Shown here: positions 2,800 through 7,869 of the stretch, piece after piece
Layout of the letters: the number at the start of each line of letters is the position of its first letter
How positions within the stretch are numbered: the stretch's first letter is position 1
Source: a virus
Lineage: Duplodnaviria; Heunggongvirae; Uroviricota; Caudoviricetes
IMG/VR virus record: IMGVR_UViG_2740892421_000006
DNA length: 8,277 nt
Strand: one strand, 5' to 3'
Made by a program: the position numbers and the translations under genes
Notes under the pieces: model-generated
Database searches by the model: none
Told to the model about the DNA's origin: nothing
Seen by the model: only the letters and a program-made list of their open reading frames with translations

Positions 2800-3219
2800 A
2801 TGAAAGCAAAAAACTTAATGATTCTAATGCTAACCACGTCACTAATTGGGTGTTCGTCTTCGTCTATATCTATTTCAAAGGCAAAGGATGCACCTCAAAG
2901 CAGAATATTTAAATATCAAACACTACATGAGTCTAGTCTAACAATAGTTCGAGACAAAGGGCTGGTTGGTTCTGCATGTAACGCTTCCATTTTCATCAAT
3001 GGAGAAACGGCTGCAAAGCTAGAACCTGGTGAAAAAGCAACTTTCTACCTTAACGAAGGAGAGTGGATCGTTGGGACATCAATTGAAAGTTCAGGTCTTT
3101 GCGCATTTAACCCCTCCAGGATGGAACGAGAAATAAAGCTAAAGCAGGGCGACTCGAAAACATATCGGGTTTTCACTACCTGGGATGGTACAATGGACAT
3201 ATTGCCAACCACTTTATAA
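2800..3219 (+). CDS. putative lipoprotein (139 aa), predicted outer-membrane sorted
   Basis: N-terminus MKAKNLMILMLTTSLIGCSSSS: hydrophobic h-region plus lipobox L-I-G-C; residue +2 after Cys is Ser (no Lol avoidance Asp). Stop TAA 3217-3219. Confidence 0.65.
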   Translation: MKAKNLMILMLTTSLIGCSSSSISISKAKDAPQSRIFKYQTLHESSLTIVRDKGLVGSACNASIFINGETAAKLEPGEKATFYLNEGEWIVGTSIESSGLCAFNPSRMEREIKLKQGDSKTYRVFTTWDGTMDILPTTL

Positions 3220-3748
3220 TGATATGACGACGAAAGATATCACCTACGGCATACCGGCTGAAGTATGGCCGCGAGACTACGAACATGCTGAACGCACCTT
3301 GCTCTTCTGGCGGAGAGCTAAATTTCCTGTAAGAGTCACTCTCGAAGACGGCCAAGTGTTTTGCATGTACGTTTATGGTCTCATGTCATCTCGTAACAAA
3401 GTTGACCTTTGTCCAACTCCATTTGACAAAGAAAATCGTATAAGGCTCCCACTTGAGCGCATTAGCACAATTGAATCAGGCGTAATTGATGGCATTGATT
3501 ACGATTTCAAAGGGAGACTAACAATACACCCTGACTATGTAGACAACCAGCCATCACGTCGTGACTTTTTTAAGATATGTCGCAAGGCTTATCAAAACGG
3601 CCAATCTATAAGGGTCTACATGGCAGACGGCCGCGAAATTGAGGGAACGTCAGATGGCGTTGATGCCTGCCTAGTCACACTTAAGTTGAACGACGGCAGA
3701 AAAATTCTTGTTTTCTTCGATTGGGTTGAACGAATTTTACCTTTTTGA
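3185..3748 (+). CDS. hypothetical protein with internal tandem repeat, possibly Rof/YaeO-like; start uncertain (3185 or 3224)
   Basis: Long ORF; the alternative ATG at 3224 lies 5 nt after the lipoprotein stop. Two similar segments (VRVTLEDGQ...NRIRLPLERISTIE and VTLKLNDGRKILVFFDWVERI). By memory the first resembles E. coli Rof (LTLELKDGE...SRKNVEY...RELRLDKITS); not verified. Confidence 0.55.
   Translation: MVQWTYCQPLYNDMTTKDITYGIPAEVWPRDYEHAERTLLFWRRAKFPVRVTLEDGQVFCMYVYGLMSSRNKVDLCPTPFDKENRIRLPLERISTIESGVIDGIDYDFKGRLTIHPDYVDNQPSRRDFFKICRKAYQNGQSIRVYMADGREIEGTSDGVDACLVTLKLNDGRKILVFFDWVERILPF
3692..3748. repeat. direct repeat copy 1 (3' end of the 187-aa gene)
   Basis: gacggcagaaaaattcttgttttcttcgatt... 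is ~93% identical to 4058-4114; this copy encodes the C-terminal DGRKILVFFDWVERILPF. Confidence 0.85.
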
Positions 3749-3751
3749 GTT

Positions 3752-4048
3752 ATGAAATCGATACTATTGACATCATTATTTTTAGTTTACTCAATTTCAG
3801 CCAATGCAAAGGATGATATTGCAATTATTAAGTCGCTGATGCATGACGTATGCTCAACGTCTCAGAATATTCCAGTTTGTATGTTTCAACTTTCAGCAGC
3901 AGTAAAACTAGGGATAAACATAGGTAAGACCGCTCAACTATGTGAACAGGTGGAAAATTATGAACCATGTGAATTGAACAACTCTTCATTGCTGTTCGTT
4001 GATGCGCTTTTTGACACCAATCGTAAGGCTGTAGAGTCAGTCCGATAA
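3752..4048 (+). CDS. small secreted 4-Cys protein (98 aa), paralog A
   Basis: Signal peptide MKSILLTSLFLVYSISANA with AxA-type cleavage site; mature part has Cys at 34, 43, 64, 73 (C-x8-C-x20-C-x8-C). Stop TAA 4046-4048. Confidence 0.6.
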   Translation: MKSILLTSLFLVYSISANAKDDIAIIKSLMHDVCSTSQNIPVCMFQLSAAVKLGINIGKTAQLCEQVENYEPCELNNSSLLFVDALFDTNRKAVESVR

Positions 4049-4057
4049 ATGTATGAA

Positions 4058-4114
4058 GACGGCAGAAAAATTCTTGTTTTCTTCGATTTGGTTGACCGAA
4101 TTTTACCGTTTTAG
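4058..4114. repeat. direct repeat copy 2 with 21-codon gene remnant
   Basis: Near-identical to 3692-3748; retains a remnant reading frame ATG 4049 ... TAG 4112-4114 encoding MYEDGRKILVFFDLVDRILPF, i.e. a duplicated 3' end of the 187-aa gene. Confidence 0.85.
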
Positions 4115-4123
4115 GATATTGAT

Positions 4124-4423
4124 ATGAAAACTGTAGCAGCATTCACATTCTTAACTTTCATTTTTAGCTCTTCCGCATTTCCTCAAGAAAATAGCATTGA
4201 ACGAGTGCAACGTGTCTCTACAGAGTTGTGTTCAAAGGCGGAAGACTACGATTTGTGCATGTTAGACCTAAGCATGGCTTTAGGCGCTGCATATCAAGAT
4301 GGACTGATCGTTGCGGGATGCAAGTTGGGACTTGATGAGCCTTCGAAAGACAAATGCGAAAACTCGGAGCGTTTTCAGGAATATATAATAAAAGAAATCA
4401 GGAACTATGCAAAAAAGATGTAA
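4124..4423 (+). CDS. small secreted 4-Cys protein (99 aa), paralog B
   Basis: SD agga 7 nt upstream; signal peptide MKTVAAFTFLTFIFSSSAF; Cys at 36, 45, 66, 78 (C-x8-C-x20-C-x11-C), the same spacing class as paralog A, including the shared C-x8-C-M-x2-L-S motif. Confidence 0.6.
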   Translation: MKTVAAFTFLTFIFSSSAFPQENSIERVQRVSTELCSKAEDYDLCMLDLSMALGAAYQDGLIVAGCKLGLDEPSKDKCENSERFQEYIIKEIRNYAKKM

Positions 4424-4438
4424 ATTCCTATAAGGGTA

Positions 4439-4468
4439 ATAACCGGCTAAGTCCGGTTATTATTTTAC
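4439..4468 (+). terminator. Rho-independent terminator
   Basis: 8-bp stem ataaccgg (4439-4446) / ccggttat (4453-4460), loop ctaagt, then tattttac; 16 nt after the stop of paralog B. Confidence 0.65.
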
Positions 4469-4599
4469 ATGCCATTCGTTTAACACTCATTCAATTCTCC
4501 CCCGTATAAATATATATAAGGTCAAAAGCCGGAATTTATTATTTATTTAGGGAACACCTTCGACGATCTAACTTTTATTTCTAGGACTTTCATCCCTGC

Positions 4600-4647
4600 A
4601 AAAAAACTTAAAAAAACACTTGCAATCTTTTTTCGCGTATCGATAAT
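4600..4647 (+). promoter_or_regulatory. sigma70-like promoter with A-tract UP element
   Basis: A-rich tract aaaaaaacttaaaaaaacac (4600-4619), -35 ttgcaa (4620-4625), 16-bp spacer, -10 gataat (4642-4647); about 60 nt upstream of ATG 4707. Confidence 0.45.
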
Positions 4648-4706
4648 TGGACTCATCGAAAGCGAAATCGCTAACGACAATTAAATTTATACTAAGGATT
4701 GAAATC

Positions 4707-5357
4707 ATGGCTAACATTATCATTTCTAAAAAATCCATCATTGAAGCTGCTGCCATTGTATCCGACGAGCTGCGCGAAAAAGCAGATCTGGCAACTCAAA
4801 CATATAACGAACATTATAAAAATGGTACGCACACAAAAGCAGACAGAGCTAACATGCTTGCAGCGTCTACCAAACTAGCATACTTCACCAACAACGTTTT
4901 AAACGCTGTTAATGATGAGAAATTAGCTGGTGTCTTTTACTACGCGATCAAAGCAAGTAAACAAGCGCCAGAAGTATTTTTCCGTGATGCAATGACTAAT
5001 AGTTATTCACTGGAAAAACTGGTCTATCTGGTTAAATCAATTAAAGCTGGTAAATGCGTTTATTCCATCGCTGATATGTCAGGATCTCGTGTATTTGCTT
5101 TAATCGATATGATTAACGACGAGATCGACACGTTCACCAATGGCGCTGTTTTCGATTTAATGAATGAAGCTAAAAAAGCGTGCGAAATTAAATTGGACGC
5201 TGGCTATACTCAAGCCAACCAGTTGATCAATCTTTGCGAACGTCTTGGACTTGTTGAGAAAGTCAAAGGAATGGGAAGCGCAAAAGCTGGTACGCAGCAA
5301 TATCGCTTTATTAAAAATGATTTCTATAACTATCTGGCTGATGCTTTCAAAGCGTAA
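4707..5357 (+). CDS. hypothetical protein (216 aa)
   Basis: SD aagga (4694-4698) 8 nt before ATG 4707 (MANIIISKK...); the ORF-track start at 4647 lies inside the predicted promoter and has no SD. Stop TAA 5355-5357. No signal peptide and no recognisable motifs. Confidence 0.7.
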   Translation: MANIIISKKSIIEAAAIVSDELREKADLATQTYNEHYKNGTHTKADRANMLAASTKLAYFTNNVLNAVNDEKLAGVFYYAIKASKQAPEVFFRDAMTNSYSLEKLVYLVKSIKAGKCVYSIADMSGSRVFALIDMINDEIDTFTNGAVFDLMNEAKKACEIKLDAGYTQANQLINLCERLGLVEKVKGMGSAKAGTQQYRFIKNDFYNYLADAFKA

Positions 5358-5370
5358 TTAATGGAATCTT

Positions 5371-5391
5371 GCGCCCACTATGGGCGCTTTT
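5371..5391 (+). terminator. intercistronic hairpin (partial terminator/attenuator)
   Basis: gcgccca-cta-tgggcgc followed by only tttt, then immediately the SD aaggag (5392-5397) of the next gene; the same stem sequence as the terminator at 5641-5665. Confidence 0.5.
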
Positions 5392-5404
5392 AAGGAGCTT
5401 AATC

Positions 5405-5635
5405 ATGTTTATTCTTATCGCTGGCGTTAACGTGCGCAATGAATATTTTGTTAATCGCATCGCTGGGATCGCTGGTTACGCTGGGCGCGCAGTCGAGTTT
5501 ATCGATGAAACGACGCGCAAAATTGACTTATTGAGCGACCAGGAGCGAAAAAAAGCAGACGTGAATGACGCTGATATATTTTTAATGTTGAAAGCGTTTG
5601 TAGAAATGGGATTCAAAATTAGTTTACACAAATAA
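5405..5635 (+). CDS. hypothetical small protein (76 aa)
   Basis: SD aaggag 7 nt upstream of ATG 5405 (MFILIAGVNVR...); the ORF-track start at 5369 falls within the upstream hairpin. Stop TAA 5633-5635. Confidence 0.55.
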   Translation: MFILIAGVNVRNEYFVNRIAGIAGYAGRAVEFIDETTRKIDLLSDQERKKADVNDADIFLMLKAFVEMGFKISLHK

Positions 5636-5640
5636 AATCG

Positions 5641-5665
5641 AGCGCCCACTATGGGCGCTTTTTTC
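5641..5665 (+). terminator. Rho-independent terminator
   Basis: Stem agcgccca (5641-5648) / tgggcgct (5652-5659), 3-nt loop, then a T6 run; 6 nt after the stop of the 76-aa gene. Confidence 0.75.
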
Positions 5666-5685
5666 GTTTCCAATACTCCCACCAT

Positions 5686-5712
5686 AACGCGCCATCATTG
5701 GCGCGTTTTTTA
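5686..5712 (+). terminator. second (tandem) Rho-independent terminator
   Basis: 8-bp GC-rich stem aacgcgcc (5686-5693) / ggcgcgtt (5700-5707), loop atcatt, then ttttttatt. Confidence 0.7.
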
Positions 5713-5980
5713 TTGTCTTTAACTCGCTCCAACAACATAAAAATAAGCACCAAAATAACGCCATAGACGCACTTTTATATCCTTACCAGTACATACCCAT
5801 TACTTAACACATTAACGCGCTTAAAACGCGTTATATTGCGCTATAGAGTATGGTTAATCATTGGCTTTTAGTCTTGCTATGTGATCCGCGTTTATTTGTC
5901 GGCGCGGATCGGTTCTTTGTGTTGTTTTGTATCCGCTCGCGTATTATGTGCGCGTGATTTTTCACATAATCACACCACTT

Positions 5981-5996
5981 AATCACATATGTGATT
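5981..5996. promoter_or_regulatory. perfect 16-bp palindrome AATCACATATGTGATT (candidate operator)
   Basis: Exact dyad symmetry; sits in a cluster of TCACA/TGTGA pentamers (5954-5996) within a noncoding region. Confidence 0.35.
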
Positions 5997-6125
5997 ACGC
6001 TACGAAAGAAATCTGGATGTCTCAGGCGACGAAAGTCATCATAATTTTCCCCGCTCACCTGTCCGACAACCGCTGGTTGGATTCCACCAGCTTCCCGATG
6101 TTTTTTCTACATAAAGGCGAATGCA

Positions 6126-6238
6126 GCCGTTTCCCGAAAAAATCCTGGCCGTTTCCCGTCGGCTCATGAATACGTTCCTCGCCGTTTCTGAAAATTTCCC
6201 TGAGGCAGCTGGTGTCTATAGAGAAAGGGCCGTTTCTG
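6126..6238. repeat. four direct repeats of GCCGTTTC(C/T)(C/T)G
   Basis: Copies at 6126-6136, 6148-6158, 6181-6190 and 6229-6238, with spacings of 22, 33 and 48 bp, in an otherwise noncoding stretch. Confidence 0.6.
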
Positions 6239-6249
6239 GCCCTCTTCTC
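6221..6249 (-). terminator. putative terminator hairpin of the minus-strand gene block
   Basis: Inverted repeat agggcc (6226-6231) / ggccct (6238-6243), extendable with gagaa/ttctc; lies 3 nt downstream (minus sense) of the 160-aa gene stop; the U-tract is only moderate. Confidence 0.4.
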
Positions 6250-6251
6250 AG

Positions 6252-6936: not shown

Positions 6937-7869
6937 TCAACTGGAATAAGAATAATCTGTATTGATGAGTAAAGGCGCATCATCCACTAATCCTGACAGA
7001 AACCAGCGAGCAGTCCCGTAAAGTTCAAGGGCGTCAAGATAGCCTTCATGCAGTGCACCAACCCCAAACACATCATTATCAGCCATAGCTACCGCATCTA
7101 CGGCCAGATACTCTATGAGTTCTTCCATGCTTTTTATATTTATATCGTCTAAAATCTCCAGTTTGTTCTCAATCTCATTGAAAGGGATATCCGGCATCGA
7201 ATGCACTATGATTTTTGGCACATCATTCTCATTATTTACCTCCACAATAACAATTCCATACTCTGTAAAAAGAGAACTAAAGAATCTATTAAACTCTAAA
7301 TTAACAAAAGATGCCGAACCATTTAAACGCTCAACATATGGGGAACGAAAAGCTGAATGTAAATTATTTTTTCTACTTTCCTTGCCATATTCTATAATCA
7401 ACTCTTTATTTTTGATCTTCTCGAGTATTCCACCTAGCTCCTCTACAATTAAAGCGCCAGTGTTTTCTCTTTCTTTTGATACTATAGTTGAAAGACTGAT
7501 CAAGGCTTCTGTTATACTGTTATTAGAAACGATCAGATGAAATAGCTCCAGCATAGCCAATCGACCACTATCAGTGAACGTAACAAAGTTTATTGCATCT
7601 ATTTCATTTTTAATCGCAAGAAACTCACATTTATTTTTGATGTTTTCCCGAATTGACATCTCCACACGCTGTCTTATTCTCAACACCTGCTTAAAGTAAG
7701 TATTTTCAAAACATTCGACAGAAAATGTCTTCTTACCATCATTCACAATAGCCAATCTGTATTCACATTCAAGACCATTAAGTTCAAGGCAATCACAGTC
7801 ATATTGGGACCCATCTTTAACTGAAAACAATTCACTAATGTCAATTTGTCCCAAAAATACTGGTTTCAT
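6937..7869 (-). CDS. hypothetical protein (310 aa), AT-rich cassette gene
   Basis: Minus-strand ORF with SD agga upstream of ATG (7867-7869); appears markedly more AT-rich than flanking DNA; bracketed by the two repeat copies. No recognisable catalytic motifs. Confidence 0.65.
   Translation of the reverse strand: MKPVFLGQIDISELFSVKDGSQYDCDCLELNGLECEYRLAIVNDGKKTFSVECFENTYFKQVLRIRQRVEMSIRENIKNKCEFLAIKNEIDAINFVTFTDSGRLAMLELFHLIVSNNSITEALISLSTIVSKERENTGALIVEELGGILEKIKNKELIIEYGKESRKNNLHSAFRSPYVERLNGSASFVNLEFNRFFSSLFTEYGIVIVEVNNENDVPKIIVHSMPDIPFNEIENKLEILDDINIKSMEELIEYLAVDAVAMADNDVFGVGALHEGYLDALELYGTARWFLSGLVDDAPLLINTDYSYSS

Follow-up and report, generated by a model that had tools for sequence, protein, structure and literature searches.

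How does a pair of phage genes come to carry the same hairpin twice, once between the genes and once behind them, and what would the two copies do? We addressed this question in a window of 8,277 nucleotides, which is the whole stretch of DNA analysed here; all parts of the unit described below lie on its plus strand. A preliminary description of positions 4600-5712 had read this region as a phage expression cassette in which one hairpin serves both as attenuator and as terminator. All of the elements it named were found again and their coordinates were confirmed. The suspected phage origin could be made more precise, as the window belongs to a phage-plasmid of the SSU5/pHCM2/pMT1 type. It is 92% identical to the phages PhiR41_1, Cyrano and CMS-2020a and 85% identical to SSU5, it matches 737 plasmids, and the same locus is present on Y. 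pestis pMT1. With moderate confidence we regard the locus as a conserved, separately regulated transcription unit of these elements in which a leaky stop is followed by full stops. This conserved regulatory unit, so far undescribed, is now annotated; it occurs in hundreds of SSU5/pHCM2/pMT1-type phage-plasmids, which are common in the clinic, among them Y. pestis pMT1 and Cyrano of E. coli LF82. A full-text literature search for the 17-nt hairpin in either orientation returned no papers, and the literature on the origins of pHCM2 and pMT1 led only to an unrelated phage-plasmid family.

Predicted promoter, genes and hairpins of the unit

The unit is located among genes for a helicase, ParB-like proteins, an FljA-like regulator and hypothetical proteins. 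The FljA-like gene lies 1 kb upstream and its product is of the RNA-binding repressor type. Behind the preceding gene (4124-4423) a hairpin with the sequence TAATAACCGG-CTAAGT-CCGGTTATTA is followed by TTTT (4437-4466) and resembles an intrinsic terminator (fold of -11.3 kcal/mol, weak score of d = -15.9). It is a candidate for the end of that gene and may shield the cassette from upstream transcription. Three conserved non-coding blocks follow, namely M1 (ATATATAAGG, 4512-4521), M2 (TTTATTTAGGGAACACCTTC, 4542-4561) and M3 (TTTATTTCTAGGACTTT, 4574-4590), which are presumed to be regulator binding sites. Conservation of these blocks across 68 distinct upstream regions reaches lineages in which gene 1 shows 48% identity; the blocks are also recognisable in the distant relatives L121 and L122, and occur in the Cyrano genome at this locus only.

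Downstream of these blocks we predicted a sigma-70-type promoter (4600-4647) consisting of UP-like A-tracts (4600-4617), the -35 element TTGCAA (4620-4625), a 16-nt spacer and the -10 element GATAAT (4642-4647). In the pattern scan the combination TTGCAA-16-GATAAT (4620-4647) was a 9/12 match, which alone is no evidence, and the scan as a whole was not enriched over shuffled sequences. The promoter call is supported because the A-tract, cTTGC and GATAAT have been kept throughout the family, in 68 distinct upstream regions that include lineages with a gene 1 only 48-61% identical; from this conservation we infer promoter activity at 4620-4647. In the alignment the 5' leader (4654-4706) contains the conserved motif CATCGAAAGCGAAnnCGCTAACGA and the Shine-Dalgarno sequence AAGGA (4694-4698). 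Its predicted fold is no better than that of shuffled sequence, and a leader stem AGCG/CGCT was unconvincing as an RNA structure, with compensatory and mismatched variants mixed.

Gene 1 extends from the ATG at 4707 to the TAA at 5357 and encodes a protein of 216 aa (PHROG 1513). The protein combines an N-terminal long helical hairpin, which is coiled-coil-like, with a C-terminal domain (residues ~120-216) that has the H-S-H-H-S-S topology of the winged-helix fold. Judging from this domain it probably binds DNA; the winged-helix matches include cullins and kleisins, and such folds also mediate protein contacts. Sequence searches of Pfam, NCBIfam and PDB gave no match and hence no named family such as MarR, ArsR or Rep_3. 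Similarly, an exhaustive profile search with gene 1 yielded only 24 representatives, all of one small family. Gene 1 was present in all SSU5-like loci examined as well as in distant relatives with the same synteny, and it is under purifying selection (median dN/dS 0.10, n=58). A function as plasmid replication initiator was rejected, as the IncFIB RepA is encoded elsewhere (CYRAN_63).

The first copy of the 17-mer GCGCCCACTATGGGCGC (GCGCCCA-CTA-TGGGCGC, 5371-5387) begins 13 nt after the gene-1 stop and is followed by T4 at 5388-5391 (hairpin 1, 5371-5391, -13.3 kcal/mol). Directly abutting this T4 is the Shine-Dalgarno sequence AAGGAG of gene 2 (5392-5397), located 7 nt ahead of the ATG. Gene 2 (ATG at 5405, TAA at 5635) encodes a protein of 76 aa that belongs to small-gene family B (PHROG 1585, E = 1.3e-38), and it is likewise under purifying selection (median dN/dS 0.14, n=21). 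No promoter-like site was found in 5300-5404 by the pattern scan, in which a mismatch to the consensus does not exclude a promoter. Six nt after the gene-2 stop the identical 17-mer recurs (5642-5658) with T6 at 5659-5664 (hairpin 2, 5640-5664, -15.5 kcal/mol). A second terminator follows at 5686-5711 (-15.7 kcal/mol); it comprises AACGCGCCATCATTGGCGCGTT at 5686-5707, built as AACGCGCCA-TCAT-TGGCGCGTT, and T6 at 5706-5711, and, with the stem GCGCCA/TGGCGC, it is a diverged paralogue of the 17-mer hairpin. Finding the 17-mer twice in exact form greatly exceeds chance (0.01 matches expected in shuffles), and around the copies extends a direct repeat of 32 nt with 88% identity.

Both copies are co-oriented with the genes and have the stem of an intrinsic terminator, with 6 G-C pairs among its 7 bp and a loop of 3 nt; in the second copy the flanking GA/TT adds A-U and G-U pairs to give 9 bp. 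The U-tract is full in hairpin 2 and in the second terminator (T6 each) and marginal in hairpin 1, where T4 is followed by AAGGAG. Accordingly, hairpin 1 falls short of the threshold of our terminator scan (>= 5 T in 8) and has the lowest score (d = 8.1), the downstream terminators reaching 18.7 and 26.0. Hairpin 1 with its T4 is probably a partial terminator, or attenuator, between genes 1 and 2, and hairpin 2 with its T6 is predicted to be a strong intrinsic terminator. Against Rfam, the whole window produced only chance-level matches at E <= 1; for the tandem terminators there was a weak resemblance to isrK and ncS025, far under the gathering scores. The terminator stack stands at the convergence of two transcription directions, beside an iteron-rich non-coding region, which fits the insulation from downstream DNA that had been predicted. 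Moreover, the view of the cassette as a self-contained unit was borne out by the candidate terminator at 4437-4466, the unit's own conserved promoter and the stacked terminators at its end.

Hairpins and small genes in related loci

In 82 related loci gene 1 is followed by one to three hairpin copies, which bracket a variable slot with zero to two small genes, and the spacing between the gene-1 stop and the hairpin is alike in nearly all of them. The hairpin adjoins gene 1 in about 93 of the 104 viral contigs that were found via the 17-mer. Contigs with the 17-mer that lack gene 1 mostly represent GC-rich contexts with no T-run, and one pair (L004/L101) is terminator-like. The 7-bp stem is invariant in the 82 loci, even where gene 1 is only 48-60% identical, and shows no compensatory change. 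As dS between the lineages reaches ~1.2, we estimate the probability that 17 neutral sites stay identical at ~1e-7. Only the loop of the hairpin varies, and it is often inverted, so that either copy may read CTA or its reverse complement TAG. Flipping is likewise seen in the second terminator's loop (ATCATT / AATGAT), again with intact stems. One variant of the hairpin has a 4-nt loop (GCAA) and another is bulged. Such invariance of a stem, with no compensatory change over dS > 1, is stricter than in most terminators and could reflect sequence-specific recognition.

T residues follow the hairpin on the coding strand in internal and terminal copies alike, without exception, and the length of the run goes along with the position of the copy. 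Hairpins that precede a gene have a short or broken T-run, for example TTTAAAGGA, TTTTAAGGA or TAGTTTTAA, and the last hairpin of a locus carries T5-T7, typically TTTTTT(C/G). The mean leading T-run was 3.0 where a gene follows versus 5.5 in the last hairpin, as obtained by a crude automatic classification of related, non-independent sequences. In the 10 loci without a small gene, the hairpin right after gene 1 carries the full T6. This succession of short and long T-runs fits the idea of the preliminary description that a leaky stop precedes a full one, but the reuse of one hairpin turned out to be a family-wide trait and not a design specific to the window. It could also be that the shorter T-run after internal copies just marks the point of gene insertion, without selected attenuation.

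At the position of the second terminator the relatives carry either the exact hairpin or near-copies of it. Tandem units of ~44-45 nt are found twice in one locus (L025) and three times in another (L059). In L122, a distant relative, the same layout is built with two different, unrelated hairpins. Identity of the hairpins is thus not required, and duplication and recombination probably produced the identical copies. The Cyrano genome has the hairpin and related GCGCC stems nowhere but at this locus, a transcription convergence point, and a genome-wide terminator motif was rejected for this reason. Outside the family the same 17-mer with a T-run was detected in terminator-like contexts in Pseudoalteromonas, Kordiimonas and a Nitrosomonadales MAG, so that no special factor would be needed for its function.

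The small genes of the slot fall into family A (67 aa) and family B (75-76 aa). With H for the hairpin, the observed architectures are H-A-H, H-B-H, H-A-B-H, H-B2-H, H-B2-H-B-H, H-H-H and H alone, and in ~16 loci A and B are adjacent without an intervening hairpin. Gene 2 of the window is an accessory occupant of this slot, as its presence varies across the loci; its 81 homologues are all found in SSU5-like elements. Family A is ancestral, as a lineage with a gene 1 60% identical to that of the window has a counterpart of it (36% identity, E = 2e-9). The junction TTTTAAGGAGCTTAATCATG between hairpin 1 and gene 2 is the same as the A-B gene junction in PhiR41_1, and the cassette junctions show plain microhomology (TTTAAAGGAGCTT). 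Conserved repeat arrays flank the slot, with TATAAGG upstream and, downstream, GCCGTTTC iterons (6126-6238) together with an 18-bp palindrome (5980-5997). The annotation of gene A in SSU5 as 'MIT family metal ion transporter' was unsupported, as there was no family match. Indeed, no family of Pfam, NCBIfam or PADLOC was assigned to gene 1, gene A or gene B, and their PHROGs matches were function-unknown only. The homology searches thus left the products of genes 1 and 2 as proteins of unknown function, as they had been introduced, and the suggested link to anti-restriction or anti-defence found no support for either, the searches of PADLOC, Pfam and NCBIfam being without a match.

Expression in a lysogen and explanations of the repeated hairpin

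Published gene-level RNA-seq is available for the Cyrano lysogen, which is 92% identical to the window (PMC9928086). FPKM values were obtained by inverting the published log2(FPKM+5) as 2^x - 5, with two replicates each. In LB, gene 1 (CYRAN_113) and gene B (CYRAN_112) were at the floor, with log2(fpkm+5) of 2.3-2.8 (PMC9928086 S1 Table). At 6 h in macrophages both genes are more highly expressed, and gene 1 exceeds gene B ~2-fold. The MB6 values were ~46 and 40 for gene 1 and ~24 and 15 for gene B, and the MB1 values were ~6 and 10 for gene 1 and ~16 and 15 for gene B, all of which are low and too weak to establish a gradient (PMC9928086 S1 Table). In the low-expression samples (B1, B6 and MB1) gene B reads slightly exceeded those of gene 1, which is the opposite of graded expression, though with counts near the floor. 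That both genes are silent in the lysogen would suit a lytic or early unit under repression (PMC9928086 S1 Table), and the architecture had beforehand been called typical of phage early or anti-host genes. Besides, CYRAN_113 and CYRAN_112 are absent from the 13 Cyrano morons listed in that study (PMC9928086 Table 1).

In the explanation we favour, the sigma-70-type promoter (4620-4647), placed behind ~100 nt of conserved upstream sites and off in the lysogen, would drive gene 1 and thereby a coiled-coil and winged-helix protein that probably binds DNA. The transcript would then meet a terminator hairpin whose U-tract is shortened by the ribosome-binding site of the next gene. Some polymerases may stop here, and the remainder would read into the small accessory gene, in this case of family B, before two strong tandem terminators end the unit and keep transcription out of the iteron-rich non-coding region. 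The hairpins would be copies of one ~44-45-nt terminator unit that duplicates in tandem, with the small genes between the copies. Shared boundaries, the hairpin on one side and TTT(T)AAGGAGCTT on the other, may let recombination add, delete or swap small genes; the order gene1-H-B-H of the window resembles gene1-H-A-B-H with A deleted between two Shine-Dalgarno repeats.

Part of the evidence could also be read in other ways. The intercistronic hairpin might act post-transcriptionally, blocking a 3' exonuclease or serving for processing and thereby stabilising the gene-1 segment of a full-length transcript, with the grading brought about by decay, as in malE-malF, where intercistronic REP hairpins stabilise the upstream segment. 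The strictly conserved and stable GC stem (-13.3 kcal/mol) would suit such a role, as would a T-run that is only T3-T4 or broken in all internal copies and poor for termination. Nevertheless, we consider this unlikely, given that T residues follow all copies on the coding strand, that the same hairpin has a canonical T6 where no gene follows and that the 17-mer with a T-run is an apparent terminator in unrelated bacteria. It is likewise improbable that the duplicated hairpin is an insertion/deletion scar without regulatory meaning and that hairpin 1 causes a near-full stop or near-full read-through. Frequent gain and loss of cassettes and RNA-seq values without a consistent gradient from gene 1 to gene 2 agree with a scar. 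However, a near-full stop would leave gene 2 almost unexpressed or reliant on an unseen promoter, whereas this gene is under purifying selection (dN/dS 0.14), has a strong Shine-Dalgarno sequence at ideal spacing and would need read-through, as 5300-5404 contains no promoter-like site. The short-versus-long T-run pattern, moreover, holds across lineages with different small genes and in L122.

The palindrome GCGCCCA-N3-TGGGCGC could instead be read by its sequence, as DNA or as an RNA hairpin, either in autoregulation by a phage protein or by a recombination system that moves the cassettes. The candidate recognisers would be the winged-helix product of gene 1 and an FljA-like repressor, both of which are encoded in this region, and the occurrence of the hairpin in the Cyrano genome at this locus only would agree with this. 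So would the missing compensatory changes in 82 loci at dS of up to ~1.2, variation in the 3-nt centre alone, reminiscent of a dimer operator, and the varying small-gene content between the copies. Yet the 4-nt GCAA loop and the bulged variants suit an RNA hairpin and not a DNA site of fixed spacing, the T-runs always follow the hairpin on the coding strand, and L122 combines the same layout with unrelated hairpins. As for recombination, A and B have no hairpin between them when both are present, so hairpins are not obligatory cassette ends; there is no adjacent recombinase, the sole integrase in Cyrano being ~58 kb away; and the junctions show plain microhomology. Altogether, we regard recognition by sequence as very unlikely. 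Only slight credence is given to a broader version in which the hairpin copies form a dedicated slot for swapping small genes under one regulated promoter, with the stem recognised sequence-specifically or used in recombination. If true, it would represent a minimal cassette system without an integrase in SSU5-type phage-plasmids. The locus offers a natural comparative series, one hairpin whose T-run depends on whether a gene follows, which could calibrate models of terminator strength. The variable small-gene slot and the conserved repeat arrays around a winged-helix protein are candidates for a part in phage-plasmid replication, partition or the lysis-lysogeny switch.

Comparison with known systems

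Like a phage moron, the locus is compact, lies in a temperate phage genome and comes with a promoter and a terminator of its own, and the small genes A and B are variable. In contrast to morons, gene 1 is conserved throughout the family and only A and B are sporadic, and expression of gene 1 and gene B in the Cyrano lysogen lies at the detection floor. A lysogenic moron was therefore rejected, as the operon is silent there despite its conserved promoter. The slot also recalls integron cassettes, with apparently promoterless small genes in one orientation behind a common promoter, a repeated palindrome between them and varying content. However, integron attC sites are imperfect palindromes of 57-141 nt with extrahelical bases, whereas the element described here is a 17-nt perfect hairpin with a T-run. 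Moreover, A may directly adjoin B with no hairpin between them, and the junctions are of ordinary microhomology. An integron cassette array was rejected, with neither IntI nor attI nearby.

Minute inversions of hairpin loops were reportedly described by Kelchner and Wendel in 1996 for non-coding chloroplast DNA. Similarly, the 3-nt loop reads CTA or TAG in either copy with intact stems, here in the terminator of a phage-plasmid; template switching at the inverted repeat would be the mechanism that we infer for these inversions.

Tandem terminators at convergent gene boundaries are known from examples such as rrnB T1-T2. Comparable to these, two to four stacked intrinsic terminators end the unit and face opposing transcription, but here the stack consists of tandem copies of one ~44-45-nt unit whose copy number varies in close relatives. 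The closest parallels are internal attenuating intrinsic terminators, for instance lambda tR1, the rplJL-rpoBC attenuator, the rpsU-dnaG terminator and those of the filamentous-phage transcription cascade. What distinguishes the present locus from them is that the internal and terminal hairpins are identical in sequence, the T-run being the sole difference, that the slot holds different small genes in different relatives, and that factor-dependent antitermination is neither known nor implied. In common with them, a GC-rich hairpin with a suboptimal U-tract stands between two co-directional genes, the downstream gene lacks a promoter of its own as far as the scan found, a strong terminator ends the unit, and more of the upstream than of the downstream product would be expected. 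A leaky terminator followed by strong tandem terminators is a textbook mechanism, and the unit would add a neatly documented new example to this ordinary kind of gene regulation.

A two-gene unit on a phage-plasmid

The genes, hairpins and terminators of the preliminary description were all found at the positions claimed when the window sequence was checked, which confirmed the observation. On the + strand, gene 1 (ATG 4707 to TAA 5357, 216 aa) is followed by the 17-mer hairpin GCGCCCACTATGGGCGC (hairpin 1, 5371-5387), a TTTT run and, immediately after it, AAGGAG, which lies 7 nt before the start of gene 2 (ATG 5405 to TAA 5635, 76 aa). The identical 17-mer recurs on the same strand after gene 2 with TTTTTT (hairpin 2, 5642-5658), succeeded by a second + strand terminator consisting of AACGCGCCATCATTGGCGCGTT plus T6 (5686-5711). 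Another terminator-like hairpin lies 3' of the preceding gene (4437-4466, + strand). Two exact copies of the 17-mer greatly exceed the chance expectation of 0.01 matches in shuffled sequences, and the direct repeat around it spans 32 nt (88% identity). As RNA, hairpin 1, hairpin 2 and the second terminator have predicted stabilities of -13.3, -15.5 and -15.7 kcal/mol.

Escherichia phages PhiR41_1, Cyrano and CMS-2020a match the region at 91-92% identity, and Salmonella phage SSU5 matches it at 85%. Moreover, 737 plasmid records match the window, with typing as IncFIB and non-mobilizable. Therefore, the window derives from an SSU5/pHCM2-type phage-plasmid. The same locus is present in Y. pestis pMT1 and in Kluyvera and Buttiauxella contigs. 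In Cyrano, a phage-plasmid of E. coli LF82, the counterparts of genes 1 and 2 are CYRAN_113 and CYRAN_112, which end a leftward unit (CYRAN_118 to 112) converging on a long rightward gene run (CYRAN_100 to 111). As had been proposed, the unit is self-contained, having its own conserved, putative promoter and predicted strong tandem terminators at this convergence boundary.

Promoter, expression and gene products

The promoter-like TTGCAA-16-GATAAT (4620-4647, + strand), with A-tracts on its 5' side (4600-4617, + strand), matched at only 9 of 12 positions, and promoter sites in the window were in total no more numerous than in shuffled sequence, so the claim of a promoter needed support beyond the scan. 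This support came from an alignment of 68 distinct upstream regions of related loci, in which the proximal A-tract, the -35 core cTTGC, the spacing and the -10 GATAAT are kept even where gene 1 is only 48-61% identical. In the same alignment three upstream non-coding blocks, ATATATAAGG (4512), TTTATTTAGGGAACACCTTC (4542) and TTTATTTCTAGGACTTT (4574), are as conserved as the promoter; they occur nowhere else in the Cyrano genome and are still detectable in distant relatives. Together, promoter and blocks carry what appears to be the signature of a regulated promoter. A TATAAGG(G/T) repeat upstream of the promoter is present in two copies in the window (within 4428-4446 and 4512-4590) and in three in the distant relatives L121 (2640-2860) and L122 (2520-2700); this repeat and the blocks TTTATTTAGGGAACACCTTC and TTTATTTCTAGGACTTT are more strongly conserved than the coding sequence.

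RNA-seq data published for the Cyrano lysogen (PMC9928086; Table 1, S1 Table) place gene 1 and gene B, the family of gene 2, at the detection floor in LB, with log2(fpkm+5) values of 2.3-2.8 where the floor is 2.32. Only at 6 h within macrophages does the cassette increase, by about ten-fold; its neighbours, the FljA-like regulator (CYRAN_114) and lipoprotein genes, are expressed in the lysogen (PMC9928086). The unit, although autonomous, is therefore switched off in the lysogen. A reading as lysogenic moron was ruled out by this silence, which is compatible with the suggested early unit and with a lytic or stress-induced one.

Gene 1 belongs to PHROG 1513, a family of unknown function, and had no match in Pfam, NCBIfam, PADLOC or PDB sequences. 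An exhaustive profile search returned only 24 representatives among 1.84 billion, and a word-index search 102 homologues, nearly all on Enterobacteriaceae contigs of about 105-114 kb. In its AF2 model (pLDDT 84) a long helical hairpin at the N-terminus precedes a C-terminal domain. The gene 1 product is most simply read as a dimeric winged-helix protein of no specific family that probably binds DNA. Family and profile searches gave no informative match for gene B or for gene A, the other small gene of relatives. Purifying selection acts on gene 1 and gene B. Homology searches gave no evidence for an anti-restriction or anti-defence role of either protein, as had been envisaged, and none against it. 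Gene A of SSU5 (SSU5_119, L002 6022-6225) bears the annotation 'MIT family metal ion transporter CorA', which looks spurious because the product is a 67-aa helical protein without Pfam support.

Flanking genes and the downstream non-coding region

At a distance of 1 kb on the upstream side of the cassette, the phage-plasmid has an FljA-like 'repressor of phase-1 flagellin' gene (3185-3748, + strand; PF03614, E = 3e-80; PHROG 1444). FljA in Salmonella acts on mRNA, so that host flagellin or transcripts of the phage could be influenced by the copy found here. This gene is followed by two small paralogous + strand ORFs of 98 and 99 aa (3752-4048 and 4124-4423; PHROGs 9536 and 27673), each weakly matching the family of the other and neither found at this position in Cyrano, PhiR41_1 or SSU5. 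One of them weakly matches the T4 valyl-tRNA-synthetase-modifier PHROG 1256 (E = 1.5e-4); a methionyl-tRNA synthetase is encoded elsewhere in the element. On the - strand, a 310-aa ORF (6937-7869) without matches in Pfam, PHROGs, NCBIfam or PADLOC lies in a region that varies among relatives; in E. albertii plasmids that cover this part of the window, RelE/ParE toxin-antitoxin genes are found close by.

The terminators are followed by 540 nt of non-coding sequence (5713-6251) at the point of converging transcription. It contains an 18-bp perfect palindrome, TAATCACATATGTGATTA (5980-5997), three copies of TAATCACA and four of GCCGTTTC (6126, 6148, 6181, 6229; spacing 22-48 nt). Repeats of the CCGTTTCC type are kept in divergent lineages and multiplied in L121, with at least six copies at 4030-4240. 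The region looks like a cis-acting protein-binding region and may be a site such as an origin, a centromere or an operator array; leftward transcription would be kept out of it by the stacked terminators. The plasmid RepA gene is located elsewhere.

Terminator copies and the small-gene slot

Where a gene follows, the hairpin tail is TTTAAAGGA, TTTTAAGGA, TAGTTTTAA, TATTTTTAA, TTTTAAATG or TTATTCAAA; the last copy ends in TTTTTT(C/G), as does the copy after gene 1 at the 10 loci without a small gene. The mean leading T-run was 3.0 before a gene versus 5.5 in the last copy (Mann-Whitney p ~1e-7, for crude automatic classes of related, non-independent sequences). A d'Aubenton-Carafa-type score, usable for ranking only, rose from hairpin 1 (8.1) to hairpin 2 (18.7) and the second terminator (26.0). 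Both comparisons fit the proposed attenuator and terminator, and the T-run pattern is as expected for a probable leaky internal stop and full terminal stops. On the predicted graded expression the only data are weak: gene 1 exceeded gene B about 2-fold at 6 h in macrophages and the order was reversed at lower expression (PMC9928086).

A 17-mer scan of viral contigs gave 104 stretches, with gene 1 adjoining the hairpin in about 93; the others are mostly GC-rich contexts without a T-run, except for a terminator-like pair (L004/L101). At the 82 loci with enough flanking sequence the stem GCGCCCA/TGGGCGC is unchanged in all copies of this hairpin, including lineages with 48-61% identity in gene 1, and variation is confined to the loop (CTA, its reverse complement TAG, ATA, TTA, CAA, TTG, once GCAA). 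Diverged hairpins such as GCGCCA-GAAA-TGGCGC occur in some of these lineages and generally at the second-terminator position. Compared between the window and the SSU5-type lineage, gene 1 shows a synonymous divergence of about 1.2, at which 17 neutral sites would stay identical with a probability in the order of 1e-7 by our own estimate; therefore, the hairpin is under strong constraint or repeatedly homogenised. The Cyrano genome has neither the hairpin (up to 3 mismatches) nor any GCGCC...GGCGC stem outside this locus. In relatives, loops are inverted on intact stems, CTA versus TAG in either copy of the main hairpin across at least six architectures and ATCATT versus AATGAT in the second terminator (window 5378-5380, 5649-5651, 5695-5698; L001 5965, 6510), which suggests frequent template-switch inversions at a perfect inverted repeat.

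Small-gene content between the hairpin copies differs among loci and defines a variable slot. With H for the hairpin, v for the diverged second terminator and letters for small genes, we found H-A-H-v (~22 loci), H-A-B-H (~16), H-B-H as in the window (~13), H-v (10), H-A'-H-H (6), H-B2-H (4), H-A-B2-H (3), H-B2-H-B-H (2) and the gene-free H-H-v and H-H-H-v (2). The last two (L025, L059) carry a 44-nt terminator unit (hairpin, T6 and gtttccgctataaagccacca) two and three times in tandem 3' of the gene-1 homologue, so that terminator copy number differs between near-identical genomes. Family A (67 aa) is the ancestral occupant, with a counterpart at 36% identity (E = 2e-9) in the lineage where gene 1 is 60% identical, and family B (75-76 aa) is accessory. 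The window junction GGGCGC-TTTTAAGGAGCTTAATCATG is identical to the A-B junction of PhiR41_1, and the window therefore resembles an H-A-B-H locus from which A has dropped out by recombination between the two TTT(T)AAGGAGCTT repeats.

The absolutely invariant stem remains an oddity, and leaves a low probability of sequence-specific recognition or of a dedicated role in cassette exchange. Three findings speak against a special recognition factor. The second terminator (GCGCCA/TGGCGC) is a diverged copy of the main hairpin, and in some relatives its position is taken by the exact hairpin or a near-copy. The distant, syntenic L122 keeps gene 1, a hairpin with a weak T-run, a small ORF and a strong terminator, with two unrelated hairpins. 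The 17-mer with a T-run also stands in terminator-like contexts in Pseudoalteromonas, Kordiimonas and a Nitrosomonadales MAG. Therefore, the layout is functional. In L122 the slot (3660-3815) holds a 29-aa hydrophobic ORF (MKSLFTKVFQFILIGVLVVPLVWWWMLAF), and occupants in different lineages are unrelated small genes. Tandem duplication of a good terminator, together with recombination between the copies, best accounts for their being identical. The preliminary interpretation is supported in part: the unit is a regulated and self-contained operon whose internal terminator is probably leaky, and hairpin reuse, read there as a feature of this cassette, is seen throughout the family as the outcome of duplication and recombination around a slot with variable small genes. 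A leaky internal and a strong terminal terminator are a mechanism of known kind, at a locus that is so far undescribed.
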